Origin: Eubacteriales bacterium | GTDB taxonomy: Bacteria > Bacillota > Clostridia > Oscillospirales > CAG-272 | NCBI GenBank assembly: GCA_045533775.1 | Contig: JAZSIK010000054.1 | Span: 1-61,987 of the forward strand | Length of the DNA: 61,987 nucleotides | Reading direction: 5' to 3' | Part shown: positions 274 through 24,530 of the stretch, in pieces | Layout: every line of letters starts with the position of its first letter | How positions within the stretch are numbered: position 1 is the first letter of the stretch | Notes under the pieces: generated by a model | Database searches by the model: none | The model's input: only the letters and a program-made list of their open reading frames with translations | What the model was told of the DNA's origin: nothing | Position numbers and translations under genes: made by a program

Positions 274-1797
274 TCAACCAACGACAGAAAAAAGAAAAAG
301 CAGGACTTCTGTCCTGCTTTCTGTCGTTGGTGAAGCAAAGGCTTCAGTATCCGAAATTTTCTCTACCTCGTCGAGCTCGTCGGTTGTGGGAACGGTTATA
401 GGCTCGTTTTTGTAGTTTAAGGTGATTACAAGCTTGTCGTCGTAAAGTAGCACGCATTTGACTAAACTGTCTATCAAGCGCTCTCGATTTCGCTCTAATG
501 TCAAGTCTAGTTTACGAAATTTGTCTACAACGAATATAATCTGCTCTTTCGTGAGCTTGGGAGTACTTGTCTGTTCTTTCAAAATATTAAGCTCGATTTG
601 CTCTTCCTGAGCTTCAAGCTCCTCAAGCTTTGCCTTAGTTGAACGAGTGATAATTCCTGCCTCGATAGCCTTCATTACGTTGTCAATAGACTTTCTAATT
701 TCTTTGAGCTGAGCCTCAAGAAGCGGTATAACCTTATTGTCCTCGTCAAGCAGGGCGACTATTTTGTCAGCAATCTTATCAAGAGCTTCGTCGTCAAATA
801 AAACCTTAATAACCTTATTAAGCACAAGCTCCTCAATCCATTCCTTGCGAACGGCTTTCTTGTCGCACTCGTGCCTCTTTGCACTGGCGCATTTGTAGTA
901 GCGGTAGATATTGCCGTTTTTCTTTTGTGCAGAGTCGGCAACCATCATCGTGTGGCATTTCCCGCAGAAAAGCTTTGTAGTCAGTATGTACTTCTCCTTC
1001 GCCTTATTCTTGGCGGCGGCTCTCTTGTTTTTAGCCATTCTCTGCTGTACTACCTCAAAGGTCTCGGCAGACACTATGGCAGGTACACCGCCCGGGATCT
1101 CAATGCCGTTATAGTGATACACGCCCATATATGATTTATTGGTAAACATTCTATTGAGCGTGCCGTTATTAAACTCTGCGCCCTTCTGCGTTTTAAGACC
1201 TCTTGCGTTAAGGCTACGGACTATGTCTATAATGGATTCACCGTGAGCGTAACGCTCGAATATTTCAGCCACTATGGGAGCTTTTAAGGGGTCAATCTGG
1301 AAGTGCTTCTCCTCGTCAACGGTATAACCGTATAGAAGACCATTGCCACCGTTAAAGCGGCATTTCAAAGCGTTCTCGGTCATGCCTCTCGTTACCTTTT
1401 CTGCAAGGTCAGCTGAATAGTATTCTGCCATGCCTTCAAGCACCGACTCGAGAATTATGCCCTCCGCACCTTCCGAGATAGCCTCGGTCGCCGAAACAAC
1501 GCGAACGTCATTTTTCTTCAAGGCAGCCTTGTATTTCGCACTGTCGTAGCGGTTACGAGAAAAACGGTCAAGCTTCCAAACTATGACTACGTCAAAGGTC
1601 TTCTTCGCGCTGTCGCGTATCATGCGCTGGAACTCGGGACGGTTGTCGGTTTTTGCGGAATATGCCCTATCTATGTAGTGCCCAACTATCGTGATGCCGT
1701 TCTTCTCGGCAAAAGCAGTATTCTCACGAATCTGCCCCTCAATCGACTCCTCTCGCTGATTGTCCGAGGAATACCGAGCGTAAATTACACCTGTCAT
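274..1797 (-). CDS. Large serine recombinase (integrase/excisionase type)
   Basis: 507 aa. N-terminal resolvase motifs VIYARYSSDNQ, SIEGQ and WKLDRFSRN. Central recombinase domain, Cys-rich zinc ribbon (CGKC...YYKC...HEC) and C-terminal coiled coil. Confidence 0.93.
   Translation of the reverse strand: MTGVIYARYSSDNQREESIEGQIRENTAFAEKNGITIVGHYIDRAYSAKTDNRPEFQRMIRDSAKKTFDVVIVWKLDRFSRNRYDSAKYKAALKKNDVRVVSATEAISEGAEGIILESVLEGMAEYYSADLAEKVTRGMTENALKCRFNGGNGLLYGYTVDEEKHFQIDPLKAPIVAEIFERYAHGESIIDIVRSLNARGLKTQKGAEFNNGTLNRMFTNKSYMGVYHYNGIEIPGGVPAIVSAETFEVVQQRMAKNKRAAAKNKAKEKYILTTKLFCGKCHTMMVADSAQKKNGNIYRYYKCASAKRHECDKKAVRKEWIEELVLNKVIKVLFDDEALDKIADKIVALLDEDNKVIPLLEAQLKEIRKSIDNVMKAIEAGIITRSTKAKLEELEAQEEQIELNILKEQTSTPKLTKEQIIFVVDKFRKLDLTLERNRERLIDSLVKCVLLYDDKLVITLNYKNEPITVPTTDELDEVEKISDTEAFASPTTESRTEVLLFLFSVVG
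281..327 (-). terminator. Rho-independent terminator lying inside the last codons of the recombinase ORF
   Basis: On the minus strand: aaagcaggac-agaa-gtcctgcttt followed by ttctttttt. An outer stem acgacag/ctgtcgt encloses it. The ORF stop (274-276) lies beyond the T-run. Confidence 0.6.
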
Positions 1798-2105
1798 ATC
1801 CTAATCTCCTTCCCTAAAATTTGTGGTTTGATTGTAGCATAAACTTTCCCGGTTTTCAAGTCTTTTTAACGACTTATTTTCCCAAAACACCTCGTTTTCA
1901 GCAAGGTGTGCACGTCTGGGTACATCTCGGAGTGAAAATTTAGCAAAGAACAAAATTTGAGCCGCTGAAAACAAAGAGAAACTCATAAAAATGTTTTGTT
2001 TGCAAAAATTCACGACTTTGCGAGTTAGACGAAATATGATGTCTTCAAATATGTGTCTAACTTAATTGTAAAATTTGTGCTATTCATATTAAAAAACAAT
2101 TTTAA

Positions 2106-2137
2106 AACCGATGCTCTGTAAAATTAGAGCATCGGTT
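2106..2137 (-). terminator. Hairpin terminator of the 2142-3140 gene
   Basis: 12-bp perfect stem aaccgatgctct (2106-2117) / agagcatcggtt (2126-2137). T-rich on the minus strand downstream. Confidence 0.65.
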
Positions 2138-2141
2138 GTGC

Positions 2142-3140
2142 TTATATATCTTTAAGCTCGCGGAAACGGGTAAGGACTTTTTCACAGTGAGTTTTTTCTT
2201 TCTCGGACTTAACTTCGATAATTTGGTTCAGAATCTTTACGCAAACGTCATTACTGAGATAGCGATAGAGACCTGTACCCCACTGGGTGCTATCGGGATT
2301 GTTTGCGTTATGGTAATAGTCCCAGAAGTTCAGCTGTTTAGCTTCCTCGGGCGTGAGCTCTATCGTGTATTCGGGGTCGGCCTTGACATATCCTGCAGCA
2401 AGAGCGTCGCCTTCATCAACAACTCCGGTAATAAAGACTCCGAAGATAACACGCTCTGTAGTGTTCGGGAAAACAGTTGTCAAAACAGCAAGACCATTCT
2501 GCTTTGCGCTTGTTATACGTCGAGCTTTATGTACTCCGTTTTCATCGAGATTATCACCGGCCTCTGCTTTCCATTCGGTAAGCATTCTTGATTCGTAGCA
2601 AACGAAGTTCTTCTTATGTATAGCGAGGAGCTCATCATAGGTAATTTCGCCTCTATAATAGCGACCACAGGGAGAACCTTCGTTTGAGCACCAGGCTCTT
2701 TTTTCCTTCTCGATGTTATATTTAATCTGCTCGGGAGAGCAAACACCTTTGAAGCCAATGCAAGATTCGGAGCAACCGCCGTCGCAGAAGTTTGCCTTGA
2801 ATGCGAGATTTCCTTCTTCCTTGTGCTTAAGCTCTGCCGACGAAAGCTTATGCTTTTTGTTTTCTTCGGCCAGAGTGCGCTGATAACGAAGGTGAATTTC
2901 CGCGGCCTTAGCCTCAGCTTTTTTACGCTCTTCTTCAGCCTTTTTTGCAATGGATTCATTAGCCAAGATTTCAACGTCCTTCTGCATAGCCTCGTCTGCA
3001 AATGTCAAGAACTGAGCGAAAATATCAGGGTAGCGGAAGTTAGTTGTTTTGGTGGAGAATTCGACTGTGGCAATATTGTTCTCGAACTTTACGATAGTTC
3101 CTTCTCCAAGGGTTTTGTGGATGACTTTTTTGTTAAGCAT
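2142..3140 (-). CDS. Hypothetical protein with an N-terminal UvrD/PcrA-C-terminal-like (Tudor-like) motif
   Basis: 332 aa. HKTLGEGTIVKFENNIATVEF resembles the UvrD C-terminal HAKFGEGTIV...VAF. Lys/Glu-rich coiled coil, Cys-rich middle, unknown C-terminal half. Confidence 0.5.
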   Translation of the reverse strand: MLNKKVIHKTLGEGTIVKFENNIATVEFSTKTTNFRYPDIFAQFLTFADEAMQKDVEILANESIAKKAEEERKKAEAKAAEIHLRYQRTLAEENKKHKLSSAELKHKEEGNLAFKANFCDGGCSESCIGFKGVCSPEQIKYNIEKEKRAWCSNEGSPCGRYYRGEITYDELLAIHKKNFVCYESRMLTEWKAEAGDNLDENGVHKARRITSAKQNGLAVLTTVFPNTTERVIFGVFITGVVDEGDALAAGYVKADPEYTIELTPEEAKQLNFWDYYHNANNPDSTQWGTGLYRYLSNDVCVKILNQIIEVKSEKEKTHCEKVLTRFRELKDI

Positions 3141-3374
3141 AGCTGTTTCTCCTTGTCATATTAAAATAATTATATCATAAACAAATAAAAAAAGCAAGCG
3201 CGCAAGAATGGGCGCAGATGATGGGCGCATAGCGTATTAACTCTTACAAACACATTATAACATATAGAGTTTGACAAAATCGTCACATACCAACAGCGCA
3301 AAAATTAGCGAATATAGTTGATAAAACGGATTTGGTATGATATAATAAATAAAAAATTCGAAGGAGTATTTGAT

Positions 3375-3860: not shown

Positions 3861-3861
3861 A

Positions 3862-4647: not shown

Positions 4648-5637
4648 CTACGAATTAAGTAAAACGTACCCCTCTTTTGTATGCTCTATTTTATATTCCA
4701 GTTCAATTAGATCCTTTATGGAATTACCTATCGCTTTTCTATGTATGGTCGTACCGTTAAACCTCTTTTGCACTCTCTCGATAATCTCGGATTGCTGAAG
4801 GGGGTTTTCAGCGTCTTCAAGAATTTGCAAAATCATTATCGGATATGCGCTTGTTCCAAATTTAATATTCTTAGGTGCGGTTTTTCCCTCAAGGGAGAAG
4901 CCGCCTTCTTTTTTTATTATAACGTATCCGAGATCACGGAGCAGTTTAATATGTCGATATACCGTGCGCATTGACATGGGAGCCTTCTCCCCTACACCGT
5001 ATGCATCTTCGTACTCCTCGTCATCCTTATAGTTTTCGGGATTTATATGATACCCACTCTTTAGCTCTGCGAGAATCATAATGGGATTCGAGCGTCCACC
5101 CGTACATAATTTTTTGTAAATTTTTATCGAAAGCGTGTCTTCATTATATTTATACGTTTCGTTTTCGTCCCCCGCAAGTATAAGATTTGTTTCTATGGCA
5201 GGCAAGTCACATTGCTCGAAACAACCGGTGTTCATCCAGTCATTGCCGTCACCTATGCAGGCGAAAAACTCATCCTCTTCAAAGTATTCATCGGGACTTT
5301 CATACACGTAATTGGTAGCATCATCGTCTTCATCCAAATCATCACCGAATATCATTCCTGCGGGTGCCTGTTCCTCATAATCGTTTGCATCACCCGAGGG
5401 AATGTCTGCTTCTGTATACGGAAAGTGTGGGTCGTTAAAATACTTTTCGAAAAAGTCAGCAATGGCAGTGCGATATTTCTTGCGATGACCGTTTCTTAGA
5501 TCATCGAGATACTCCGGTGCTTCGGAGTGTTTTGAGATAAGCTTTCTTGCAAACAGCTTTGCGCTGTTAAAGCTTTCGAAGCTTCTCGTTTTTTCTTCTT
5601 CCAACGTTTCGTATTCGACTATCCATATTTTTCTCAT
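4648..5637 (-). CDS. Putative transcriptional regulator with an acidic N-terminal half and two winged-helix-like segments
   Basis: ATG 5637 preceded by gagg. Winged-helix-like segments MRTVYRHIKLLRDLGYVIIKKEGGFSLEG and YPIMILQILEDAENPLQQSEIIERV. The upstream 44 codons of the track ORF were trimmed. Confidence 0.5.
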   Translation of the reverse strand: MRKIWIVEYETLEEEKTRSFESFNSAKLFARKLISKHSEAPEYLDDLRNGHRKKYRTAIADFFEKYFNDPHFPYTEADIPSGDANDYEEQAPAGMIFGDDLDEDDDATNYVYESPDEYFEEDEFFACIGDGNDWMNTGCFEQCDLPAIETNLILAGDENETYKYNEDTLSIKIYKKLCTGGRSNPIMILAELKSGYHINPENYKDDEEYEDAYGVGEKAPMSMRTVYRHIKLLRDLGYVIIKKEGGFSLEGKTAPKNIKFGTSAYPIMILQILEDAENPLQQSEIIERVQKRFNGTTIHRKAIGNSIKDLIELEYKIEHTKEGYVLLNS

Positions 5638-5931
5638 ACAGAACCTCAAAATTGTATTTTGTTTTATTATACTACAAATGAATCTGCTTTTCAAGAGAAT
5701 GTGACGTTTTTGACAAAATCCATGTGTTATAATCTTCTCGCAAATGCTCAAACACCCCAAATTACACAAAAAACATCCATCTGGCTATACCATTTTCTGT
5801 GTCAAAAACGTCACGCGTTTGTATTTGATAAAATAAAACCCCCGTGTTATACTCATTAAAAATTGATCTTTGACAACACAAATAACATCTTTATAAATCA
5901 TCACTTTATTAATTTATTGAAAGGAGAAAAA

Positions 5932-6393
5932 ATGGAAGAAAACAAATTTGGTATTGTATTTATTGGTGGAAGCGAAACGATTGGCGCACTTCCCGAAAAC
6001 GCAGTCGCCTGGCTTGACCACTTTATAGGAGCAAATGAACGTTTTATAATAGGTGACTGCTTTGGTTCGGATCTTGCTCTGCAAAATTATCTTAATTCAC
6101 GAAAATATCAAAAAGTTACAGTGTATTATTCAGGTGATCGGTGTCGGTTTAACGTTGGTGAGTGGGAAGCTGTGCGAGTTGCGTTAAAACCCGAGGAAGC
6201 TATGATAGCGGAATGTAACTGTGCGTTTCTAGTATGGGATGGCTTCTCTAAAGAAACTAAAAGCAGTATAGAAAACCTTAGACAAAATGGGTTGCCAATA
6301 TTTATATACCGAACGGATCTTGACAAGCTACGTGTAGTAAGAAGAAATTGCAAATTAAATAGTGAAAAAACTGAAAAGGAGAAAACTGTATGA
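5932..6393 (+). CDS. Small Rossmann-like protein (SLOG/DUF2493-like or nucleoside 2-deoxyribosyltransferase-like)
   Basis: SD aaggag. Motifs GIVFIGGSE, IIGDCFGSD and FLVWDGFSKETKSSIE..GLPIFIYR. The stop overlaps the next start (ATGA). Confidence 0.4.
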   Translation: MEENKFGIVFIGGSETIGALPENAVAWLDHFIGANERFIIGDCFGSDLALQNYLNSRKYQKVTVYYSGDRCRFNVGEWEAVRVALKPEEAMIAECNCAFLVWDGFSKETKSSIENLRQNGLPIFIYRTDLDKLRVVRRNCKLNSEKTEKEKTV

Positions 6394-7100
6394 ACAACAA
6401 GCTTTTTATTAAGAGAGGTGCTAAGACGGTTGGAGTATGCGCTTATCAGGATAGGACGGATATTGCTACGGTACGAATACCCGAGGGAGTAAGGTGTATC
6501 GGTAACGGTGCTTTTTGCAGATGCGCATCGCTTTGCGACGTTTCTCTTCCTAATAGCCTTAAGATGATCGGTGAGATGTCATTTGCTGCTACAAATATCA
6601 AAGACATTATAATTCCGGATAGTGTAGAGCTTATAGAAAAACGCGCGTTTGCTTTTAATCCCGAACTTCGCACGGTGTATATCGGGAAATCCGTGAAATA
6701 CATAATGCCCGGTGCATTTTCGGGCTGTGAGAAGCTTGAAAGAATAACAGTTTCTCACCAAAACGACTACTACTATGTACAAAACGGCTGTCTTATAGAT
6801 AAAGAAACAAAGAAGCTTATAGTCGCATGCTATCCTTACATTGTGCCGGATGGAGTTAAAACAATCGAAGAGCAGACGTTTATGTTTCTTCTTAACTGCG
6901 ATAGAATAACCTTCCCCACAAGCGTCGAGCACATAAATATGGAGGGTGATCCTATTAAGAATTTTGATATGTGCCGCTATGTTGAATATGACAGGCGCGG
7001 TGAGGTAATGCTCGAAAAACCGATGAAAATAAAATCACCGAAAGGCTCTTGTGCGGCAAGGTTTGCTAAAGAACAAAATATTAAATTTGAGGAGATATAA
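6390..7100 (+). CDS. BspA-type leucine-rich-repeat protein without a signal peptide
   Basis: Repeating IP.SV..IG..AF..C..L units. C-terminal KGSCAARFAKEQNIKFEEI motif shared with the 19380 and 20152 ORFs. Confidence 0.8.
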   Translation: MNNKLFIKRGAKTVGVCAYQDRTDIATVRIPEGVRCIGNGAFCRCASLCDVSLPNSLKMIGEMSFAATNIKDIIIPDSVELIEKRAFAFNPELRTVYIGKSVKYIMPGAFSGCEKLERITVSHQNDYYYVQNGCLIDKETKKLIVACYPYIVPDGVKTIEEQTFMFLLNCDRITFPTSVEHINMEGDPIKNFDMCRYVEYDRRGEVMLEKPMKIKSPKGSCAARFAKEQNIKFEEI

Positions 7101-7102
7101 AA

Positions 7103-7498
7103 ATGGAGAACCAGATTATAGTTTTTGTCGGTAGAGGTACAAGCGGATTGAAAGAAATGCTCACCGATTATATGTGCGTTCGTGAGTTTAAGCACGAAAG
7201 AAAAGCGGGTGATCCTTGCCTTTCGGAATCCGATTTTATTCTTTACTCCCTCGGTCGCAGGTATGAGGGTGGCTTTATTGATGAGATATCGGTAGGTTGC
7301 GACAACGGTGAATATGAGCCTATTGTGTTTGATGATTTTCTTAGCAGAGTCGATGAAGCGATAGATATTAAGCCTTATTTTGAAGAGCTGCTTGAGCTCG
7401 GTGTGCCCATCTTCTATTTCGCAGAGCATGAGAGCAGCGTTGAGCGCATGAGTGAAAGCGGTTTGCCGCTTGTAATTTACAGAAAGAGCAAAAGTTAA
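7103..7498 (+). CDS. Hypothetical protein, distant paralogue of the 5932 ORF
   Basis: IIVFVGRGTSG at the N terminus. ELGVPIFYF and GLPLVIYR at the C terminus echo GLPIFIYR of the 5932 ORF. Confidence 0.4.
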   Translation: MENQIIVFVGRGTSGLKEMLTDYMCVREFKHERKAGDPCLSESDFILYSLGRRYEGGFIDEISVGCDNGEYEPIVFDDFLSRVDEAIDIKPYFEELLELGVPIFYFAEHESSVERMSESGLPLVIYRKSKS

Positions 7499-7514
7499 TA
7501 AAAGGAGTAAAAGA

Positions 7515-7862
7515 ATGACAACAGCAAATAAAGAACTTGTTCTTCTTGACGTGGATGATATTGAAGAGGCGGTGGCGGCATACTTCGGAGAAGAAGTATG
7601 CCTCGGTGAAATGGAATGTATATTAACCTATTTTATTCCTATGGACGAGGGAATTCCAAAAGGCATGGTATTTGATATTTTAGTTCATGAGAAGTCGGTA
7701 GATGCCTTCGATTTATTTATGGACGATGACGATTCCTGTGCCTATATTTACAAGGATAAAGAAATCAGCTTGAATGAAGCGTTCCTTGAGCCGAAAGATA
7801 TTTTCAACTTTGACACAAAGCTTTTCAAGTCTTTCAAAATCGATACAGATTCGAGCGATTAA
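7515..7862 (+). CDS. Hypothetical acidic protein
   Basis: 115 aa, SD aaggag, Asp/Glu-rich. Confidence 0.5.
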   Translation: MTTANKELVLLDVDDIEEAVAAYFGEEVCLGEMECILTYFIPMDEGIPKGMVFDILVHEKSVDAFDLFMDDDDSCAYIYKDKEISLNEAFLEPKDIFNFDTKLFKSFKIDTDSSD

Positions 7863-7906
7863 TAAAGCTTGGGACGTTAAAATTTAATTAAGGGGTTAAG
7901 AACAAA

Positions 7907-8473: not shown

Positions 8474-8484
8474 GGAGAAATATT

Positions 8485-13703: not shown

Positions 13704-13704
13704 C

Positions 13705-15244: not shown

Positions 15245-15259
15245 GGAGAACCAGCTATA

Positions 15260-16147: not shown

Positions 16148-17488
16148 ATGAAAGTAGGCAAAACAATGGATGATGCATTAAAAAATAAAATTATAAACAC
16201 AAAAATCAATGAGCGCAAAAAGCTTATGAGAGAGCTGTGGAAAAAGGCGGAGGATGCTTTGAAGGCATTATACGGAGATATGCCCGACATGCGAATATTG
16301 AATCGCTTTTACACTGAAAAGATGATTTTCGGCGAGACCGATAGCGTGATTTTATGGGATCTCGTCGCAGAAACAATACATCAGGCAAAGGAAAAAGGAT
16401 ATACAACCACGATTGCAGGAACAGATGGCTCCTGCTTTACAGCATATCTTCTCGGTATGTGTGAAAATCCCCTGCCGCTTCACTACTTGTGTCCAGTATG
16501 CAAGAAAACCGAGTTTATAAACGAGCGTGCGCTGCCTTGGGATATGCCAAACAAGCCTTGCGAGTGCGGTGGCGTGATGCGAGCAGATGGTTTTGACATT
16601 CCTTTTGAAACGCATATCAGAATGGCGCACAGGCCTTGGCCAAATGTTTGTGTTAACCCGGCATTTATGGAAGAAGCAAAGCAAATTGTGAGAAAAAAGG
16701 TGGGCGGTTTGTATCGAATCTGCACGCTCACCAAACCCGACTACGCCCCGGTGAAATTCGTCTTTCTCCCCTTCAACGGAGAATCCGAGTTCGAAGAACA
16801 TGTTGATACAGTAGACGGTAAGTACGACGATTTCCCGCGCATAACGATAATACCGTTTGATTTGTACGAGCGTAAAGCGCGATTGTGTGAGGAAACGGGG
16901 GAAAACTTATTTGAAGGCATTCTTTCTAAAAAGGTCCTTTCCGATCCTCGTATTATAGAGGCATTCGCAAACGGCGATACAGATAATATACCGAATTTCA
17001 CGTCAAAATTCCTTGATATGAAAGAAGCGCTGCGCCTCGCCTCACCGAAGAACTATTATGACCTCTTGCAGTTTATGGGCGCGATGCACGGCACAAACAC
17101 CTGGTGCAATAATGCCGAGTGTCTGATCCGTGACGGAATATGCTCTATCGGAGATATCCCCACTCACAGAGATGATGTGTTTATGCTTCTTCGCGACAAG
17201 CTTCGAGAAGCCGGACACGAGGACGTCGGTATAGCGTATAATCTCGCTATGAAGATTCGTTACGGCATTTCTGCAAACAGAGGTATTAGTGCAGAGGAAC
17301 TCGCTTTACTTGATTACCTCGACCTGCCCGAGTGGTTTATCCCCTATGCCGAAAGAATACAGTATATGTTCTCGAAGGCGCATAACATAGAAAGCCTTCG
17401 CATAGCTCTCACGTTTATGTGGTATAAAATAAATTATCCGAAAGAGTTTGATGCTTGTGTAAAATCGAAGCTTAAGGATCATATTTGA
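16148..17488 (+). CDS. Truncated PolC-like protein 1 (zinc-finger, partial palm and fingers segment; catalytic Asp motif absent)
   Basis: GSCFTAYLLG..NPLPLHYLCPVCKKTEF...CECGGVMRADGFDIPFETH, HGTNTW, HRDDVFMLL and LPEWFIPYAERIQYMFSKAH all match PolC motifs. PolC has PDIDLNF where this ORF reads WPNVCVNPAF. Confidence 0.7.
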   Translation: MKVGKTMDDALKNKIINTKINERKKLMRELWKKAEDALKALYGDMPDMRILNRFYTEKMIFGETDSVILWDLVAETIHQAKEKGYTTTIAGTDGSCFTAYLLGMCENPLPLHYLCPVCKKTEFINERALPWDMPNKPCECGGVMRADGFDIPFETHIRMAHRPWPNVCVNPAFMEEAKQIVRKKVGGLYRICTLTKPDYAPVKFVFLPFNGESEFEEHVDTVDGKYDDFPRITIIPFDLYERKARLCEETGENLFEGILSKKVLSDPRIIEAFANGDTDNIPNFTSKFLDMKEALRLASPKNYYDLLQFMGAMHGTNTWCNNAECLIRDGICSIGDIPTHRDDVFMLLRDKLREAGHEDVGIAYNLAMKIRYGISANRGISAEELALLDYLDLPEWFIPYAERIQYMFSKAHNIESLRIALTFMWYKINYPKEFDACVKSKLKDHI

Positions 17489-17513
17489 TTATTTTAAAAA
17501 GGGTGTATTAAAG

Positions 17514-18779
17514 TTGAATAAAGAAAAAACAAAACTTATAGAAAAAATTTGGCAAAAGGCGGAAAAAGCACTTTATGCCTTATACGGTGATATGCCGGAT
17601 ATTCAAATACTAAACCGCTTTTATAGCGAGAAAATAGCTTTCTGTGAGACCGATAATATAATTATTTGGGATCTTGTCGGAAATATTTGCAGCGAGGCGT
17701 TGTGCCTTGATTATAATGTAAGACCCGTTGGCACTGTCGGATCTTGTTTTACGGCGTATCTTTTGGGAGCATCAATAAACAATCCCTTGCCGCTTCACTA
17801 TCACTGCTCAAGCTGCGGTTGCACCGAATTTGTAGATAAAAGCAATGCACTCCCATTTGATATACCGAGTAAAACTTGTGCTTGCGGTGGAGTGATGTGT
17901 CCCGAAGGATTTGATATCCCGTATGAAATGGACATATCCGTTTCGCACGCTCCACATACATCGCTTTGGGTTTCACCGGGATTTTTAAAAGAGACAAAAC
18001 GAATGGTTTTTGAACGAATGAAAAATCATTACTGCGTCGGAGAATTATCGAATGATATGGGTTATACGAAATTTGCCTTTTTGCCTAAGAATTCCAAAGC
18101 TCATTTTAATGAAAAAGTTGATGTTACAGATGACAGGTATATTATTTTCCCATCACTGACTGTAGGAGATAACCCGCTCTTCGACAAAGCCGAGAAGTTA
18201 ACCGAGAAAACCGGTGTTGATTTTTATGAAATTTATTCCTCTAATTGCAAGGATTATCTTTCGGATGAAAAAATCGTTCGAGAATTTGCATCGGGAAATA
18301 TAGACGGAATCCCCCCTTATTGGAAAGAACCAAGATACAATAACATGAAGGATGTCTTAAAATTTGTCAATCCACAAAGCAGTTATGAACTTTTGAAAGT
18401 TTATAGCGTGTTGCAATGTTCGCGCACATGGGTGGAATACTGCGAAACTTTGCTTCTTAGCGGTGTTTGCATTGCAGATATCCCTACAACAATAGAAGAG
18501 GTGTTTATGCTAGTTCGTGACAAATTAGGATATAGTGGCGCGAGCATTGCCTGCGAGCTGGCAAACAAGATTTGTTATAACAAGCTTGATGCAAATGCAC
18601 TTGCGATACTTTCATTACTGGATCTTCCGAAATGGTTTATTACATACGCCGAAAAAATGAAGTTTATACATGATAAAGTGAGAATGGTTGCTTTCTTGCG
18701 CGAAGCTCTCGCATTTATGTGGTATAAAATAAATTATCCCGAGGCGTTTAAGGAAATTATGCCGAATGATGGATTGTAA
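17514..18779 (+). CDS. Truncated PolC-like protein 2 (paralogue of the 16148 ORF)
   Basis: TTG start. Same motif series: GSCFTAYLLG, NPLPLHYHCSSCGCTEF, CACGGVMCPEGFDIPYE, LPKWFITYAEK and FMWYKINYP. Reads HTSLWVSPGF at the PolC catalytic position. Confidence 0.65.
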   Translation: MNKEKTKLIEKIWQKAEKALYALYGDMPDIQILNRFYSEKIAFCETDNIIIWDLVGNICSEALCLDYNVRPVGTVGSCFTAYLLGASINNPLPLHYHCSSCGCTEFVDKSNALPFDIPSKTCACGGVMCPEGFDIPYEMDISVSHAPHTSLWVSPGFLKETKRMVFERMKNHYCVGELSNDMGYTKFAFLPKNSKAHFNEKVDVTDDRYIIFPSLTVGDNPLFDKAEKLTEKTGVDFYEIYSSNCKDYLSDEKIVREFASGNIDGIPPYWKEPRYNNMKDVLKFVNPQSSYELLKVYSVLQCSRTWVEYCETLLLSGVCIADIPTTIEEVFMLVRDKLGYSGASIACELANKICYNKLDANALAILSLLDLPKWFITYAEKMKFIHDKVRMVAFLREALAFMWYKINYPEAFKEIMPNDGL

Positions 18780-18780
18780 T

Positions 18781-19086
18781 ATGGATAAAACAATTAGTGA
18801 ACAGATAAAAGCTGTAATAGAAGATACTATATCACGGCTTCAAGAGGAAGGCGTAGAGGATATTCGAAAAACGGTAGAATATCTTGAATACGGCTTCAAG
18901 GTTGTGACCTGTCCGATATGCGGTAACGAAACGCTCGATATGTTTTGGGTATGTCAGCATTGCGGTTGGGAATACGATTATTTCTTGAATGAAAATGAAG
19001 AATCACTATCAAACGGCGTAACCATCGCCGAATACAGAGCCGAATATAAAAAAAATATTAATAATAAATCTACAGAAAGGAGATAA
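18781..19086 (+). CDS. Cysteine-rich CPCC-type domain protein
   Basis: CPICGNETLD..WVCQHCGWEYD...NGVTIAEYRAEY. ATG directly after the upstream stop. Confidence 0.6.
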   Translation: MDKTISEQIKAVIEDTISRLQEEGVEDIRKTVEYLEYGFKVVTCPICGNETLDMFWVCQHCGWEYDYFLNENEESLSNGVTIAEYRAEYKKNINNKSTERR

Positions 19087-19090
19087 CTTT

Positions 19091-19234
19091 ATGCAACAGT
19101 GGGAAGTATGCTTCTTAATTGGCGGACACCAATACACCTACATAGTACAGGCTGTTTCGCAAGCGAAAGCGATTGAAGAAGCAAAACGCATCTACGGTAT
19201 TGACAAGGGCGCTCTTTGGGCAAAGAGAATCTAA
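19091..19234 (+). CDS. Small hypothetical ORF (47 aa)
   Basis: Below the ORF-track cutoff and read directly from the sequence. ATG 4 nt after the upstream stop. Followed by a terminator. Confidence 0.35.
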   Translation: MQQWEVCFLIGGHQYTYIVQAVSQAKAIEEAKRIYGIDKGALWAKRI

Positions 19235-19253
19235 TAGCGCGTGTCAAAAACCA

Positions 19254-19290
19254 AGACCTGCCGTAAGATGTGACTTGCGGCAGGTCTATT
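19254..19290 (+). terminator. Hairpin terminator ending the 5.9-19.2 kb gene string
   Basis: 10-bp perfect stem agacctgccg (19254-19263) / cggcaggtct (19278-19287). Weak T tract. Confidence 0.6.
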
Positions 19291-19295
19291 GAGTA

Positions 19296-19324
19296 TTGAA
19301 ATAAACAAAAAATCGTGTTATAAT
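19296..19324 (+). promoter_or_regulatory. SigA-type promoter with an extended -10
   Basis: TTGAAA (19296-19301), 17-nt spacer, then TGtTATAAT (19316-19324), upstream of the LRR gene pair. Confidence 0.6.
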
Positions 19325-19379
19325 TAAGTAAAATTATCGTAACACAGTCGATAAAACTAACATTCTAAAGGAAGCAAAA

Positions 19380-20132
19380 ATGAGCAACATTAACGATTTT
19401 GTGATGAAAGACAAAGCTCTTGAAAAATCTTCAAGCAAAGAAACTCAAAAGTTTACACTTCCCCACATAAATATATATGAGAGCAAATATGAGAAAATTT
19501 TGGTTGAATATATACCTGACAACTCTTCCAAAACTATAATTATACCCGAAGATGTTGAAATAATAGACCAATTTGCTTTTGATGCGGACGATTCTTTAAC
19601 ATTTTTAAAGGAAGCGTACGGAGAAAATTTTCAATATCCTGACAATATCGGTACAAAATTTATTGAAAAGATCCTAATAAACAAAAGGTTAATAGGGGTC
19701 GAAAACTACGCTTTTTGCGGACTTGAAAATTTGAAAATTATCGAGGTTGATAAAGAAAACCCATATTTTATAGGTGGAGATACCCTGTTTTACACGAAAA
19801 AGGTCTCTCATCCCAATTTCATATGGTGTAGTAGTCAAAAAACAGGAAGTTATACCGTCCCTTCTTGGATAACGGCAATTGGTCCAAAAGCTTTTGCAAA
19901 TTCAAAGTTGGATAGCGTAATACTGCTTGAAAAAATCACTTATATCTGGGATGATTCCTTTGAAAATTGCAAAAACCTCGTTATAAAAGGCTATAAAGGC
20001 AGTTATGCTGAAGAGTATGCAAAAGAAAATGGAATGCCCTTTGAGGCGATAGAAATCGTTATAAAGGGATATGAAGGTAGTTATGCTGAAAAATACGCAG
20101 AAGAAAACGGAATTCCCTTCGAGGCGATATAA
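19380..20132 (+). CDS. BspA-type leucine-rich-repeat protein without a signal peptide, with a duplicated C-terminal motif
   Basis: LRR units (IPEDVEIIDQFAF, IGVENYAFCGLENL, ITAIGPKAFANSKL). The C terminus repeats IKGYKGSYAEEYAKENGMPFEAI / IKGYEGSYAEKYAEENGIPFEAI. Confidence 0.8.
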   Translation: MSNINDFVMKDKALEKSSSKETQKFTLPHINIYESKYEKILVEYIPDNSSKTIIIPEDVEIIDQFAFDADDSLTFLKEAYGENFQYPDNIGTKFIEKILINKRLIGVENYAFCGLENLKIIEVDKENPYFIGGDTLFYTKKVSHPNFIWCSSQKTGSYTVPSWITAIGPKAFANSKLDSVILLEKITYIWDDSFENCKNLVIKGYKGSYAEEYAKENGMPFEAIEIVIKGYEGSYAEKYAEENGIPFEAI

Positions 20133-20151
20133 AAATAAAAGAGGACTTAAT

Positions 20152-21087
20152 ATGAGTTATTATGTAAAAGTAATTGAAAACGGAGTTTTGCAAAGGTATA
20201 TGATTTCTTCAGAGAGTGTCATAGAAATTCCCGAGAATGTTCATACAGTAGCGTCTGACTGTTTTCGTCCAGAGCTTCACGATAATTTCACAAAGGATAT
20301 TTTATATGATCTTTCAAATTGGGATCATACGTGCAAAATTGAAACTGTAGTGATAAGAGAAAACATCAAATTCATTGAAGATGGCGCTTTTTGCGGGCTT
20401 CCTAATCTTAAAAGTTTTGAGGTTGCCACCGACTGCACCGCTGCAAGTGTTTATGACGACGTATTGTTTTCTAGAGATGGCAAAAAGTTGATTTCCTGCC
20501 CGCCTAAAAAGCAAGGAGACCTTGTTGTCCCTCGCGGAACCGAGAAAATATGCGAAGGAGCATTTGAGGAAACCGAGCTTAAACGCATATGTCTGCCCGA
20601 CGGATTGATATGCATTGATGACTACTTCACTTACGGATATTGCCTTGAAGAAATATACATTCCGTCGAGTGTTGTTGATATTACATCCCTTGCTTTTAAA
20701 CACTGTGAAAATCTGGTTATCAAAGCTCCTGGAGGCTCGTATGCGATTCAGTACGCTATGGAAAACAATATTGCATACGAAGAAATCTCCCCCGAGGTTA
20801 TCACCGATATGGCGAACTCCAAAAAGCAGGAATATTGGATTTTGGTGCGAGGCGATGACGGTAATCCTTGTCGTGCAAAAAGATTCGGCTACGCTTATGA
20901 ATGGAATGGATTTACTTTCTTTTCAGACAGAATAATTCCCTCTGATGATACCGTTCCCACCGAAAAAAGAAGCGGAAAAAGCCTTTGCGCGTGGAGCAAA
21001 TTCCTCGAAAGATACGAAAAAAATCCCCAAAAAATAACGAAAATGTTGACCGGCGGAGCCTCGGTTCTCGATTTTCCGGAGTATTGA
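20152..21087 (+). CDS. BspA-type leucine-rich-repeat protein with an extra C-terminal domain
   Basis: ATG 20152 with SD agagga; the track ORF start at 20071 overlaps the upstream gene. LRR units plus the GSYAIQYAMENNIAYEEI motif. About 90 aa of unknown C-terminal extension. Confidence 0.75.
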   Translation: MSYYVKVIENGVLQRYMISSESVIEIPENVHTVASDCFRPELHDNFTKDILYDLSNWDHTCKIETVVIRENIKFIEDGAFCGLPNLKSFEVATDCTAASVYDDVLFSRDGKKLISCPPKKQGDLVVPRGTEKICEGAFEETELKRICLPDGLICIDDYFTYGYCLEEIYIPSSVVDITSLAFKHCENLVIKAPGGSYAIQYAMENNIAYEEISPEVITDMANSKKQEYWILVRGDDGNPCRAKRFGYAYEWNGFTFFSDRIIPSDDTVPTEKRSGKSLCAWSKFLERYEKNPQKITKMLTGGASVLDFPEY

Positions 21088-21100
21088 AGGAGTATTAAAT

Positions 21101-21478
21101 ATGAAAGATTTTGAAAGCAAATTGCCAAAAATAAAAGAAATGATCGCTGAAAAGCTCGAAGCATTAAGGGTTCCGAAACGACTTAAGGGATACGATTATC
21201 TTGTAAGCGCAATTCTTTTATTAGTAGAGGATTCCGATTACATATTGAATAAAGAAAAGCTTTATTCCGAGGTTGCACAAAAGCACAATAGTACAATGTT
21301 AAGCGTTGAAAAATGCATAGAACGAGCTGTCAGCGAAACACTTGCTAACGGAAATAAATCTGAGCTGGACAAATACTTTGGTTACACAATAGCAAACGGA
21401 AGCACTCCGTCAACCTCAGAATTTGTGGCAATGATATCGGATGCGATAAGGTTGGTTTTAAAATATCAATTGCTTTGA
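21101..21478 (+). CDS. Stand-alone Spo0A C-terminal (DNA-binding) domain protein with no receiver domain
   Basis: KGYDYLVSAILL...LYSEVAQKHNSTMLSVEKCIERAV...FGYT...PSTSEFVAMISDAIRL is colinear with Spo0A [54 protein letters not shown]. Confidence 0.85.
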   Translation: MKDFESKLPKIKEMIAEKLEALRVPKRLKGYDYLVSAILLLVEDSDYILNKEKLYSEVAQKHNSTMLSVEKCIERAVSETLANGNKSELDKYFGYTIANGSTPSTSEFVAMISDAIRLVLKYQLL

Positions 21479-21500
21479 GAAAACAATCGTATCGTCAACA

Positions 21501-21541
21501 AAAGCTATCACAACGGAAAAATGTGTTGTGATAGCTTTTTA
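21501..21541 (+). terminator. Rho-independent terminator
   Basis: 14-bp stem aaagctatcacaac / gttgtgatagcttt followed by T-run. Confidence 0.8.
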
Positions 21542-22097
21542 AAATAAAAAATTACACTGCCTAAGACAAAGAATAGTGCATTTTAAAAAGTCGAAATTAA
21601 CTATCATGTACCTTAATTTTAGAGGCATAAAAACAAGGTGTAGAACTAAAAAAATGAGCAAAAAATCAAGGTGGTAGAGTAAACATATCACCCCCCTATT
21701 GCTAAATGTTTTTGCAAGGTCTAGACCGAAAAAATAGACTATACATTTTACATTGAATTTAACGAATTTTTAGCGTAAATCAGCAATTGTGTAAAACTTG
21801 GGATAATAGGCTATTGAATATGCCTTCAGAATATGATATAATTTTATTGTCAAAGTAATAAGCTGTGCAAAATTTGAGCTGCTTGAAACAAAGAAAAGTC
21901 GCGAAAATTTGCTCAAAAATGCGATTCTAAATTCTAAGGTCTAAACCATGGTAATATTCGCTTTTGCCCTTTGGGAAAGAATGTTCCAACAATGAAGTAC
22001 AAAAACAAGCATTTCATTTGAAAATCGCGATATTTCCAAGCTCTAGACCGAGGCTTTTTCGGCTAAAAATCAGTTACACGAAAGAAAAGGAGAAATT

Positions 22098-22466
22098 ATG
22101 AAAAAGAAGCTTAAAACTACGGAAATCTCCTTCAATGAAGCAGATCCCACTACCACGATTTATACATATAATACCAAATTAAAGAAAAGGCTTTTAGAGT
22201 TCTCCGAAGAATGCCCGGATTTGTGCAAGGTTATCTTGAAAGATGAGGACGGTTGCATAGGATTTGAAATAAACAAGGACAATTTCACATTCAGGTGTAT
22301 GAAGCCTCCGTCTGACGAGAAGCGAGAGAAAGCCAGGGAGCAGATGAACAAGCTTCGTGGCAAGAATCAGGAGTCGAGCGCAACAATAAGTGAGACGACA
22401 AGCGAGCCGAAAAACGAGCCTAAATTCATACCGAAAGACGAGTGGAAGCGACGCTTTGAGCGGTAA
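22098..22466 (+). CDS. Hypothetical protein (122 aa, Lys/Glu-rich C terminus)
   Basis: SD aaggag 7 nt upstream of the ATG. Weak hairpin downstream (22465-22490). Confidence 0.5.
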   Translation: MKKKLKTTEISFNEADPTTTIYTYNTKLKKRLLEFSEECPDLCKVILKDEDGCIGFEINKDNFTFRCMKPPSDEKREKAREQMNKLRGKNQESSATISETTSEPKNEPKFIPKDEWKRRFER

Positions 22467-22491
22467 ATACGGATAAAACAAGCCGTATTTA

Positions 22492-22706
22492 TTGGGTCGA
22501 ATTTTAAGCAGGAGAAAGGGTGTGGGTCGTAAACCGCCCACCCCCGCTTCACATCTGCCGGCAGAGCCGACAGAATAAGGACTTTCCCCAAAAACGCTAA
22601 AACTGAAGTATGGGTCACGAAAGGCATTTGGGGTTAGGCGCTATGGGTCAACGAATGAGTTTTATGAGACTTGACACCGTTTTTCTATGGGTCAAAGTAT
22701 GGGTCA
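22492..22706 (+). promoter_or_regulatory. Iteron- or operator-like array of the TATGGGTCA motif
   Basis: Four perfect direct copies at 22609, 22642, 22686 and 22698. Degenerate copies at 22492 (TTGGGTCGA) and 22521 (TGTGGGTCGT). TTGACA at 22671-22676 lies between copies. Confidence 0.55.
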
Positions 22707-22729
22707 CAATAAAATCAAAGGAGAAAAAT

Positions 22730-23029
22730 ATGAACTTGAAAACAATAAAAGATAGAATTCAAGCTTTGCTCACCGATCAATCATCGGGTATCAGTCCCGA
22801 GGTGCAAAATAAAGTTAATGAGATAGTAAAACGCATTGAGGATTTGCTTTCAAGCAACAATGGCGAGTGTGATATTCCTGATGATTTGATAAAGGAAATT
22901 GCAAGATGCTTGATTCCGGATGTTATAAAATTTCTCGAGTCTGAAAAAGGAAAGGACGAGTTCGAAAAATGGAAGAAAGAGCAGCACAAAAACGAAACAA
23001 CACGAACAATTAACAATTTAATCTCGTAG
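22730..23029 (+). CDS. Hypothetical protein (99 aa)
   Basis: ATG 22730 with SD aaggag. The track ORF from 22610 runs across the repeat array and was trimmed. Confidence 0.5.
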   Translation: MNLKTIKDRIQALLTDQSSGISPEVQNKVNEIVKRIEDLLSSNNGECDIPDDLIKEIARCLIPDVIKFLESEKGKDEFEKWKKEQHKNETTRTINNLIS

Positions 23030-23278
23030 TTTCGACAATCTTATCTTTCCGCTTGCTATAAAATTATAATGATTTTACCATAATATATGTAATAACATAC
23101 TTATAGGAGGTGAAAAGAACTGTTTTGTGATAGATATCATTCTTTTTACCATTTTGGAAAACCGATTGGAAATTACGAAAACAAAAATTCATCTTGTGAT
23201 TTGAATGATAAACTACAACTTTTTTATTATCCAATAAATAGAGCTATAAAAAAAGAAGGACAAATAAAAAAACATGGA

Positions 23279-23307
23279 TTGACAAAATTAGACAACAGTG
23301 GTATAAT
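23279..23307 (+). promoter_or_regulatory. Consensus SigA promoter with an extended -10
   Basis: TTGACA (23279-23284), 17-nt spacer, then TGgTATAAT (23299-23307). About 30 nt upstream of the protease gene. Confidence 0.7.
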
Positions 23308-23338
23308 TATCAAAAAAGATATTTGATTGGAGACTAAA

Positions 23339-24250
23339 ATGCCATCTTGGGGAAAACTATTAAATGAATTACAGCCCACTAAAGATGCTTCGGGAAATGA
23401 TGTTTCAGGATTGAGTCTTGATGGATTGAGAGAGAAATATTTAAAGAAACTATCCGTAAAGACAGGAAGAAATGTAATTGCGTATTATTCAGGATGGCTG
23501 AAATCCGGCAAAGATCAAAACGTAGATATAAACGATAGCGATATAACAGGTTTTATGAATGCCATCAATGGTATGGATTGTACAAAAGGTCTGGATTTGA
23601 TTCTTCATACCCCCGGCGGTAATCCTACCGCAACAGAGGGCATAGTTAAATATTTGCACAAAAAATTTGGGAATGATATTAGAGTTATAGTTCCCCAAAT
23701 GGCCATGTCTGCTGGCACTATGTTGGCTTGCTCTGCGAATGTTATTTTGATGGGAGCTCACTCGTATTTAGGCCCGATAGACCCGCAATTTGGAGGCATT
23801 CCTGCATATAACATAGTTACGGAATTTAAAGAAGCTAAGGGAGATATTGAAAATCGTCCTGAATCGCGAGGATTTTGGGAAACGCAGTTGAATAAATATC
23901 CCCCAGCATTTTTCTACTCCGTGATAGATGCGATTAACTTATCATCAACCCTCGCGGGAGAATGGTTGTCAAATTATATGTTCGCTTCGTTGGATAAATC
24001 CGAATCCAAAAAGCGTGTGAACGCTATTTTAAAAAAACTTAATAATAACAACCAATCTCATTCGCGTCATTTTTCACTTGATGATTGTGAAAAAATGGGG
24101 CTAATTGTAGAAAAACTTGAAAGCGATCAAGATTTACAAGAGTGTGTACTTAGTGTACATCATGCATTTATAATAACAATAGACAATAGTGATGTTACGA
24201 AGGTGATTGAAAACCAACTAGGATCTAGATATTTAACAACACAAAAGTAA
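23339..24250 (+). CDS. SDH-family Clp-fold serine proteinase (S49/ClpP-like)
   Basis: LDLILHTPGGNPTATEGIVKYLHKKFGNDIRVIVPQMAMSAGTMLACSAN...LGPIDPQF. ATG 23339 with SD ggaga. Confidence 0.8.
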   Translation: MPSWGKLLNELQPTKDASGNDVSGLSLDGLREKYLKKLSVKTGRNVIAYYSGWLKSGKDQNVDINDSDITGFMNAINGMDCTKGLDLILHTPGGNPTATEGIVKYLHKKFGNDIRVIVPQMAMSAGTMLACSANVILMGAHSYLGPIDPQFGGIPAYNIVTEFKEAKGDIENRPESRGFWETQLNKYPPAFFYSVIDAINLSSTLAGEWLSNYMFASLDKSESKKRVNAILKKLNNNNQSHSRHFSLDDCEKMGLIVEKLESDQDLQECVLSVHHAFIITIDNSDVTKVIENQLGSRYLTTQK

Positions 24251-24267
24251 GGATAGTGAGTATTACA

Positions 24268-24465
24268 ATGAAAACTATTACATATGAAGAAGTTGCAAAA
24301 CTTTATAATGATCTGAAAATAACTTCTCAACCCAGTGAAAACACAAAACTCGATACATCATACGAGCAAATAACAAATCGGAATTTTGGAACAAGAGACT
24401 ATACAACTTCTTCTAATTTTTCAGAGCACGCCGTTAACTATTCAAAGTGTTCCATAGATATTTGA
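24268..24465 (+). CDS. Small hypothetical protein
   Basis: 65 aa from ATG 24268, with an alternative GTG at 24256. Followed by a strong terminator. Confidence 0.35.
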   Translation: MKTITYEEVAKLYNDLKITSQPSENTKLDTSYEQITNRNFGTRDYTTSSNFSEHAVNYSKCSIDI

Positions 24466-24480
24466 TAATAATTTATTGCG

Positions 24481-24515
24481 GGCGAGCACCTATAAATGTG
24501 CTCGCCTTGTTTTTC
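24481..24515 (+). terminator. Rho-independent terminator
   Basis: Stem ggcgagcac / gtgctcgcc, 8-nt loop, then ttgttttt. Confidence 0.8.
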
Positions 24516-24530
24516 TAAATTTTGAAATAA

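Follow-up and report, generated by a model that had tools for sequence, protein, structure and literature searches.

A probable non-autonomous integrative island with a large serine recombinase at the tip of a tRNA-Glu gene in a gut Clostridia genome

Contig JAZSIK010000054.1 (61,987 nucleotides, forward strand) of the assembly GCA_045533775.1 comes from a Eubacteriales bacterium of the lineage Oscillospirales, CAG-272, and is referred to here in its full length as the window. It is an entire contig (C70) of the source metagenome-assembled genome (MAG; G000 in our numbering), which comprises 79 contigs and 1.83 Mb and is 92% complete with 3% contamination. Positions 334–24589 of the window, 24,256 bp when one copy of the attachment core is counted, form a discrete acquired integrative element with exact junctions, for which empty sites are found in relatives. 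We consider it probable that this element is a complete site-specific integrative island that is incapable of its own transfer, i.e. a non-autonomous element resembling the staphylococcal cassette chromosome (SCC) or the so-called ‘hitchers’. The evidence comprises the structure of the two junctions, the composition and distribution of the island, its large serine recombinase and the set of genes that it carries and lacks (Table 1).

The island is bounded at both ends by the 7-bp core TTGGTGA, one copy in attL and one in attR. The core consists of the last six bases of a tRNA-Glu(CUC) gene, the CCA among them, plus one further base, and when the two island ends were compared it was found to be their sole similarity, with no long direct repeats. 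At the left junction (333/334) a host hairpin leads into TTGGTGA and then into island sequence; at the right junction a second, unlike hairpin leads into TTGGTGA, which runs into the tRNA-Glu. The left hairpin is a long palindrome whose 5′ arm (266–281) is, with one extra base, the reverse complement of 24583–24597, that is of the core and the next bases of the tRNA, and the host sequence thereby keeps a record that the tRNA-Glu once adjoined it. The tRNA-Glu itself, whose position given in the first-pass annotation of this DNA was confirmed (reverse strand, CUC anticodon), stays whole because identical tip bases and a new terminator hairpin come from the island. That annotation had also allowed for more of the element beyond the left end of the window. 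This does not hold, since base 1 of the window is the end of the contig and the left junction lies inside it, and k-mers of 21–127 nt from the window start are shared with no other contig of the MAG. As the island ends within the window, no phage or conjugation modules adjoin it off-window. An assembly or binning artefact, in which foreign low-GC DNA was misjoined to host DNA, might be suspected in a MAG of 79 contigs with 3% contamination and with a contig start only 333 bp from the junction, but we regard it as scarcely credible: host-type sequence stands on both sides of the island within one contig, the junctions fall exactly on the duplicated tRNA tip, and the left palindrome is complementary to the right junction.

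Empty sites and exact junctions could be found by the comparison with relatives that had been suggested. Among 13 same-genus genomes whose tRNA-Glu loci were retrieved, three (G020, G023 and G007) show a flank-like repeat and one hairpin followed directly by the 3′ end of the tRNA-Glu, and in G007 the neighbouring AraC and RlmD-like genes stand in the same order as in the window. The host genes of the same-genus species representatives are only ~64–68% identical in nucleotide sequence to those of the source MAG, and the comparisons therefore rest on synteny and on short conserved elements. A further genome, G016, carries at this tRNA-Glu tip a 1.9-kb insert, unrelated to the island, with a copy of the core on either side (locus L055, G016:C33), so that the site has been used repeatedly. 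This insert has a guanine-plus-cytosine (GC) content of 0.41 against 0.545 for its host. It contains two open reading frames (ORFs) of 329 and 192 aa, whose products are zinc-ribbon/membrane-like, and it encodes no recombinase. Possibly it is what is left of an element, or else a minimal passenger, at this attachment site.

The impression of an AT-richer, acquired block was borne out by composition and by distribution. The GC content of the island is 0.395 compared with 0.47 for the rest of the genome, and the lowest value among 299 other 24-kb windows of the MAG is 0.423; the MAG is patchy, with several shorter low-GC stretches, and the contrast within the window slightly overstates the difference. 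Twenty-six ORFs cover 90% of the island, and there are no obvious pseudogenes. The SNF2 helicase gene, used as a marker, was found in two of 40 other same-genus genomes (G327, 91% identity; G333, 41%), and a profile of the regulator matched in four of 400 other genomes of the taxonomic family, all of them distant relatives. The island genes thus do not form conserved core synteny.

The recombinase that was reported at the left end of the island proved to be a large serine recombinase. Its Pfam domains are Resolvase (PF00239, 9.6e-30), Recombinase (PF07508, 9e-20) and Zn_ribbon_recom (PF13408, 3e-11), it matches the integrase family phrog_95 at 4e-121, and its N-terminal domain is homologous to that of the TP901-1 integrase. 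The catalytic-serine motif YARYSS occupies residues 6–11. All the hallmarks of this class are therefore present, namely a resolvase domain with catalytic serine, a recombinase domain, a zinc ribbon, and short att sites that share a small core, and the protein is apparently intact, to judge from its sequence. The reading frame spans attL, with residues 1–490 coded by the island and the last 17 by the host palindrome; the protein is 507 aa long in the integrated state and 512 aa in the computed circle, the two being the same up to residue 490, which means that the last 17 residues change upon integration. Large serine recombinases usually target protein-coding genes or intergenic sites. A 70-aa ORF call at 1801–2013 was considered as a directionality factor and rejected: its translation does not look like that of a coding sequence, and the stretch contains a promoter-like site. 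Elsewhere in the MAG, a second, distant serine-recombinase homologue (25% identity) was noted in the low-GC end of a contig (C58:18143–19330), which may be another island in the same genome.

Table 1. Features of the island and its immediate flanks, in window coordinates (a point in the strand column marks features given without strand)
Feature	Position	Strand	Evidence or remark
Host flank: terminator hairpin (66–112), ~150-nt structured repeat (~117–275), 5′ arm of palindromic terminator	1–326	.	repeat copies elsewhere in MAG and in relatives
Palindromic host terminator with displaced tRNA tip at its end; host arm of attL	266–333	.	hairpin arms 277–290 and 318–331
Large serine recombinase (integrase)	274–1797	-	Pfam, PHROGs, NCBIfam, PDB-sequence match
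attL copy of TTGGTGA	327–333	.	
Promoter-like site upstream of recombinase	1831–1859	-	
332-aa protein, variable left arm	2142–3140	-	no Pfam, PHROG, PADLOC, NCBIfam or PDB-sequence match
Two ORFs without assigned function, 180 and 243 aa	3318–4593	+	
Tandem winged-helix regulator, 329 aa from internal Met	4648–5637	-	HTH_11 match; fold
Switch region: divergent promoter-like sites and perfect 15-bp inverted repeat (5701–5715 / 5800–5814)	5638–5862	.	
Start of rightward operon: 176-aa ORF, LRR_5 protein (6390–7100), two ORFs without assigned function	5863–7862	+	176-aa ORF: weak GTP-binding PHROG match
phrog_3754-family protein	7907–8473	+	46%-identical homologue near regulator relative in G584
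262-aa protein: phosphatase-like (DSPc / Init_tRNA_PT-type) N-terminal domain, C-terminal FtsK-gamma-like winged helix-turn-helix	8485–9273	+	
sce7726-family N-terminal domain fused to SNF2-type helicase, 1206 aa	9239–12859	+	Pfam SNF2/ResIII, NCBIfam
DnaB C-terminal (RecA-fold ATPase) protein without DnaB N-terminal domain	12903–13703	+	DnaB_C 1e-47
ADP-ribosylglycohydrolase	13705–14580	+	Pfam, PHROGs, NCBIfam; absent from L056 and L122
DnaA/DnaC-like AAA+ ATPase, 227 aa	14561–15244	+	Bac_DnaA AAA+ 3e-10; matches DnaA domain III, weakly DnaC-like loaders
295-aa protein, large unannotated family, SH3/Tudor-like C-terminal barrel	15260–16147	+	translationally coupled (TAAATG) to first PolC-like gene
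Two paralogous PolC-derived proteins, 446 and 421 aa	16148–18779	+	E 1.4e-38 to G. kaustophilus PolC
Cys-rich CPCC zinc-ribbon protein	18766–19086	+	
Two overlapping LRR_5 (BspA-type) ORFs with 78-nt tandem duplication (19978–20133)	19380–21087	+	
Orphan Spo0A DNA-binding domain without receiver domain	21101–21478	+	Spo0A_C 4e-22; 94% in L056; host Spo0A (C4) 41% identical
Two ORFs without assigned function, 122 and 139 aa	22098–23029	+	
SDH-type Clp-fold serine protease (phrog_11747), then 69-aa ORF	23327–24465	+	
Element-borne terminator hairpin, now 3′ of tRNA	24531–24580	.	inverted-repeat search
attR copy of TTGGTGA, overlapping tRNA CCA end	24583–24589	.	
tRNA-Glu(CUC), intact, target gene	24584–24658	-	

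The absence of virion and conjugation genes that had been remarked upon was upheld. Scans of the 28 island ORFs against Pfam and PHROGs gave no match to capsid, portal, terminase, tail, relaxase, coupling protein or VirB4 families, and none to a small terminase, a capsid-redirecting or any other packaging gene. Those ORFs of at least 350 aa (the recombinase, 507; the longer call of the regulator, 373; the SNF2 helicase, 1206; and the PolC-like proteins, 446 and 421) are all explained, so that none is left that could be an unrecognised large terminase, portal, VirB4 or coupling protein. By gene content, then, the island is neither a prophage nor an integrative and conjugative element (ICE), and this part of the first-pass reading, which had offered an integrated plasmid-like replicon, a satellite or a mobilisable island instead, stands. 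A prophage that has decayed through deletion of its late (virion and lysis) genes might account for the PHROG matches, which include the integrase, a DnaB-like helicase, the ADP-ribosylglycohydrolase, phrog_3754, phrog_11747 and the Spo0A_C-like protein, and for a protease that shows 35–45% identity to proteins from seven records of Shewanella, Porphyromonas and Gordonia phages. Such decay is nevertheless quite improbable given that both att junctions and the recombinase are intact, that coding density is 90% without obvious pseudogenes, and that the core genes persist at 85–98% identity in relatives from another species and from a metagenome, again without virion genes. Nor do the markers point to phages: scans of IMG/VR with the PolC-like protein, with an alignment of the PolC-like family and with an alignment of the regulator returned no relative, and a scan with the SNF2 helicase gave one distant match. 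The matches to the PolC-like, DnaB_C and SNF2 proteins in phage and plasmid databases were rejected as relatives, since the six records opened hold full-length, cellular-type genes (PolC of 1228–1469 aa, a 444-aa DnaB and a 3176-aa helicase) and not the short forms.

A head-and-packaging-only gene cluster of host-like GC content does occur outside the island, at 52058–57852 of the window, with a TerS-like gene, TerL (phrog_979, 9e-47), a portal gene (phrog_156, 1.6e-29) and a weak major-head match. Its TerL is found at 61–75% identity in 37 of 40 other same-genus genomes, and in 20/20 of the high-quality genomes, G000 included. A distribution of this kind means that the cluster is not a helper prophage; it looks like a vertically inherited, domesticated phage module, possibly gene-transfer-agent-like, rather than a prophage.

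The left part of the island encodes a regulator that is transcribed divergently from a rightward operon of about 20 ORFs (5863–24465), and the two are separated by a switch region with divergent promoter-like sites. Since a strong promoter-like site lies inside the longer, 373-aa ORF call, the regulator most likely starts at the internal Met at 5637. The double winged-helix regulator and the orphan Spo0A domain of the first-pass annotation were both corroborated, the former by fold and the latter by its Pfam match. The structural model of the regulator (predicted local distance difference test, pLDDT, 82) has tandem winged helices that are most like those of NiaR, BirA and Mga-type regulators, and the fold matches that rank highest comprise transcription regulators and tandem winged-helix proteins of ScpB-like type; there is no Rep protein among the 50 matches listed, none of which reaches E ≤ 0.001. 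The family falls into 20 clusters, four of them on contigs equal in size to those of members of the PolC-like family (54,431, 52,333, 26,120 and 13,703 bp), which suggests that there are further islands with the regulator and a PolC-like gene on one contig. These results bear on the possibility that the island is an integrated iteron-type plasmid replicon with the double winged-helix protein as its Rep initiator, for which the two winged helices speak. We consider it very unlikely. No iteron arrays were found: the candidate iterons of the first-pass annotation were not recovered, there being only two-copy repeats at chance level, and the sole real tandem repeat (78 nt, two copies, 19978–20133) lies within a leucine-rich-repeat (LRR) gene. 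As far as its non-significant fold matches go, the regulator resembles transcription regulators and not initiators, and matches to the PolC-like protein in the plasmid database PLSDB were, among those listed or opened, full-length PolC genes by annotation or inspection (in the pJM1A record, for example, the annotated PolC coding sequence spans 6964–10983, about 1339 aa). The 262-aa ORF could be mistaken for an initiator gene, but it encodes a phosphatase-like (DSPc/Init_tRNA_PT) domain with a winged-helix tail, in a family with NADAR fusions. On these grounds, and because the PolC-like proteins have no catalytic aspartates, the plasmid-like replicon put forward earlier is not upheld.

The central part of the operon holds a set of genes that were described as having replication-type functions (DnaB_C-like, DnaA-like, two PolC-like and SNF2). 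The homology holds, but the DnaB-like, AAA+ and PolC-like proteins are fragments. The DnaB_C protein (266 aa) covers positions 195–433 of the 435 of the DnaB model and scores 169.8, below the cut-off of 385; a replicative DnaB helicase has an N-terminal and a C-terminal domain, of which only the latter is present here, and the host DnaB (contig C36) is only 32% identical to the island protein. In the AAA+ ATPase no DNA-binding domain was detected. The two PolC-derived proteins lack part of the palm: their alignment with PolC is confined to one block in the zinc-finger part of the palm and one in the fingers, and what separates these blocks in PolC has been lost. The two aspartates of the motif PDIDLN are the catalytic pair of C-family polymerases. 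In the two window copies this motif reads PNVCVN and HTSLWV, so that both aspartates are gone, and an alignment of 19 family members with the MAG's own PolC showed that both are kept in none of the 19, whilst the zinc cysteines and a DG(F/H)DIPFE motif are retained. As far as can be told from these substitutions, the PolC-like paralogues are catalytically dead.

The short PolC-like family comprises 144 clusters among proteins of 245–781 aa, nearly all of them unnamed, and occurs in stand-alone form, fused to an XRE helix-turn-helix (HTH) domain and, in one case, fused to an ADP-ribosylglycohydrolase. A survey of 300 other genomes of the order revealed short forms in 5 of them, and the HTH-fused forms in four other genomes of the order stand in housekeeping neighbourhoods. 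The single ADP-ribosylglycohydrolase fusion (P0011, 750 aa) has a PolC-like part that is 59% identical to a window copy, and it is a Rosetta-stone hint that the two proteins may act jointly. The first PolC-like gene is preceded by that of the 295-aa protein, which belongs to a family with 1195 representatives. Its model (pLDDT 91) gave no Foldseek match at E ≤ 0.001; in a wider fold search the C-terminal barrel was best matched by 5ycq (Z 8.6, root-mean-square deviation 3.0 over 77 aligned residues), a degree of similarity that common arrangements also show. The in-frame stop at 16145 was considered as a site of recoding and dismissed, as the position is the TAA-ATG junction of the two genes. 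The 262-aa phosphatase-like protein has 1128 relatives, some fused to NADAR, and together with the ADP-ribosylglycohydrolase this family points to ADP-ribose processing. A PDB sequence search with the 295-aa, regulator and 332-aa proteins found nothing below E 0.7, and the ESM Atlas gave nothing usable for the 295-aa and 262-aa ORFs.

Part of this gene set recurs elsewhere. One case is the same-genus G327 (the same genome as L056/G324, L056 being a 43-kb contig), which shares the SNF2 helicase (91%), DnaB_C (85%), AAA+ (85%), the 295-aa ORF (33%), one PolC-like protein (81%), CPCC (63%), LRR (76%) and Spo0A_C (94%) proteins. The host RlmD-like protein is 71% identical between G327 and G000, so that this one housekeeping neighbour is less conserved between the two than the core they share. 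The island genes for the ADP-ribosylglycohydrolase, the protease and the second PolC-like protein have no counterpart in the core of G327. Its flanks also differ: a Cas4/DUF2779 nuclease, a WYL regulator, AAA ATPases, phosphoesterases and an RNA ligase with kinase were identified in them, and no virion or transfer family was found on L056. In L122, a 9.3-kb metagenome contig without virion or transfer genes, the SNF2 gene (98%) is followed directly by a divergent AAA+ gene, and an ORF at 7515–7862 of the window has an 89% identical counterpart; in L123 the order is AAA+, DnaB_C, SNF2. Among 140 loci retrieved with the SNF2 helicase, only L056, L122 and L123 have at least three island genes in common. 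The picture that emerges is one of a mosaic mobile family in which a set of SNF2, DnaB_C and AAA+ genes is recurrently linked.

The function of this core, to which we count the nuclease-SNF2 helicase, DnaB_C, the AAA+ protein, the dead PolC paralogues with their partner and the ADP-ribose enzymes, can be read in more than one way. It may be a defence or counter-defence module that rides on the island, integration proceeding as we propose. The replisome look-alikes would then be decoys, sensors or inhibitors directed at foreign replication, and the hydrolases would reverse ADP-ribosylation. The loss of both aspartates in 19/19 sampled PolC-like members with retention of the zinc module would fit such a role, as would the fusion of one member to an ADP-ribosylglycohydrolase and of others to XRE HTH domains, and the occasional NADAR fusion in the family of the 262-aa ORF. 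The SNF2 protein has an N-terminus of the sce7726 family and weak matches to DrmD and DpdE, the core of G327 is flanked by the WYL regulator, nuclease, RNA ligase and AAA ATPases named above, and the gene order is reshuffled among L056, L122 and L123 in the manner of defence islands. However, PADLOC (v2) recognised no known defence system in the island, its weak single-domain matches (DrmD, DpdE, Cas3 helicase) lying within the SNF2 and DnaB_C proteins, and the match to DnaB_C is strong and phage-helicase-like. We regard a purely defensive core as possible, if somewhat unlikely. Also somewhat unlikely, and put forward tentatively, is the proposal that the recurrent core is an undescribed ‘replisome-mimic’ module of gut-Clostridia islands, which would dock on the host replisome to copy the excised island or would serve as a decoy or sensor against invading phage replication, with the recombinase using the tRNA-tip core as its crossover site. 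Taken gene by gene, replication after excision seems slightly weightier for the helicase/loader pair, and defence or counter-defence for the dead polymerases and the hydrolases.

For the non-autonomous island as a whole we propose the following course of events. The recombinase would have carried out attP × attB recombination within the core, and the tandem winged-helix regulator would act as the switch for the rightward operon. Once excised, the island may be amplified by means of its DnaB-type ATPase and its loader-like AAA+ protein, with the polymerase borrowed from the host; a link to the host replisome may be provided by the dead PolC paralogues and the SH3-like protein coupled to them, acting as adaptors. 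Counter-defence would probably be the part of the nuclease-SNF2 helicase, the phosphatase-like protein and the ADP-ribosylglycohydrolase, which would shield incoming DNA. Cell-to-cell transfer would need a helper, either a transducing phage or a conjugative element acting through an unrecognised origin of transfer (oriT), or else transformation, as proposed for SCC and for relaxase-less ‘iOriT’ islands.

Several observations weigh against this interpretation. No directionality factor, origin, oriT, primase or active polymerase was identified in the island, and no helper is assembled in the 92% complete MAG, in which there is no AAA_10 match above cut-off, no PF03432 relaxase and no PF05065 capsid, although little weight attaches to the absence of a helper from a MAG. 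Neither a circular form nor an excision product appeared in sequencing runs that gave low-depth fragments only: 11 runs hold parts of 22000–27200 (best word share 0.26), and the four that were inspected, over stretches of up to 20 kb and thus shorter than the island, yielded short, low-depth Logan contigs, in which the host flank 24867–26706 is present at ~99% (X1 and X2) and neither junction is bridged, uncovered parts not being counted as absent. The empty sites come from other species only, at about 65% nucleotide identity, and not from the same species. In G327 the related recombinase lies on a different contig from the core module, so that their linkage there is unproven. Finally, the helicase and loader are domain fragments and the HTH-fused PolC-like relatives stand in ordinary chromosomal contexts, and the ‘replication’ reading of the core may for these reasons be wrong.

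Amongst known systems the closest working analogue is the SCC family, with the iOriT islands close behind. SCC elements have large serine recombinases, insert at the 3′ end of a conserved housekeeping gene, measure tens of kb and carry variable cargo without virion or conjugation genes; they encode an active A-family polymerase/primase and a helicase. The island resembles them in its large serine recombinase, its 3′-end target, its size of tens of kb, its lack of virion and conjugation genes and its combination of a replication-type operon with variable cargo. It differs in its target, the tip of tRNA-Glu(CUC) and not rlmH (orfX), in its polymerase-like proteins, which are C-family derivatives without catalytic aspartates, and in its host, a gut Clostridia MAG; moreover, the best match of its recombinase is CcrB at 141.5 bits against an equivalog cut-off of 900, a score so far below the cut-off that the island is not an SCC member. 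SCCmec is described as carrying a replication module (PMC7581432). In the island the Pfam scan showed only the DnaB_C, AAA+ and PolC-derived proteins, no search having been made with Cch, CCPol-MP or LP1413 proteins.

The other comparisons are looser. Islands that carry only an oriT have been described, in which defence and counter-defence genes cluster near the transfer origin (bioRxiv 10.64898/2026.01.13.699239). As far as that description goes, the present island is like them in being integrative and in having neither a relaxase nor a mating-pore system, and unlike them in that it has no recognisable oriT, no conjugative helper found in the MAG and a serine recombinase as its integrase. With satellites of the phage-inducible chromosomal island (PICI) and Staphylococcus aureus pathogenicity island (SaPI) type it plausibly shares the set of integrase, divergently transcribed regulator and helicase-type replication genes, and it too lacks tail and lysis genes, but at 24 kb it is larger than is typical, its integrase is a serine recombinase, and neither a packaging gene nor an inducing helper prophage was found. 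Pipolins are reported as integrative elements with a polymerase gene and defence cargo (PMC11551731), and on that account the island is like them in carrying a polymerase-family gene and exchangeable defence-type cargo; where pipolins have an active primer-independent PolB, the island has inactivated PolC paralogues, together with a serine recombinase. Islands with tyrosine integrases that target tRNA genes likewise insert at the 3′ end and restore the tRNA by means of a short direct repeat; in the present island that repeat is only 7 bp long and the enzyme is a large serine recombinase.

A few further features of the island and the window may be recorded. Relatives of the 180-aa ORF in the left arm accompany distant relatives of the regulator in two other genera. 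Three LRR_5 proteins are recognised by Pfam, and the two overlapping ORFs downstream of the CPCC gene could be one frameshift-split gene or a recently duplicated repeat protein. The host flank on the left (window ~117–333) belongs to a multi-copy structured repeat of ~150 nt in which hairpins and a TATGCGAACCC box are conserved and some of the changes are compensatory (fold z-score -5.3). After it comes a long palindromic terminator, and the arms of this terminator repeat the 3′-end sequence of tRNA-Glu. Sequences like window 141–223 and 257–340 are present on other contigs of the MAG, and copies of the repeat were noted on G000 contigs C16 (two), C68, C51, C11 (two) and C25 (three palindromes) and at L052, L054, L055, L011 and L121; the repeat adjoins tRNA genes in several species of the genus and also starts the contig with the related recombinase in G327. 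No Rfam family matches it. Outside the island, at 27244–32042, a second low-GC patch (0.38) encodes a 23S-rRNA-IVP/Avd-like protein, two ORFs without assigned function, an N6/N4 DNA methyltransferase (PADLOC MTase_II, 8e-140) and an Mrr-type endonuclease, which together probably form a small islet for restriction-modification or defence.

Most genomic islands of gut anaerobes have no known way of moving, and the island at this tRNA-Glu provides a clean, fully delimited case. A specificity of its recombinase for a tRNA tip would be of interest for the building of integrase tools. Beyond the island itself, the PolC-derived proteins make up a sizeable unannotated family without catalytic residues. 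Gene order and one fusion tie this family to ADP-ribose hydrolases and to fragments of helicases or loaders. Mimicry of the replisome in the service of island replication or immunity would, if true, be a new function for polymerase paralogues.

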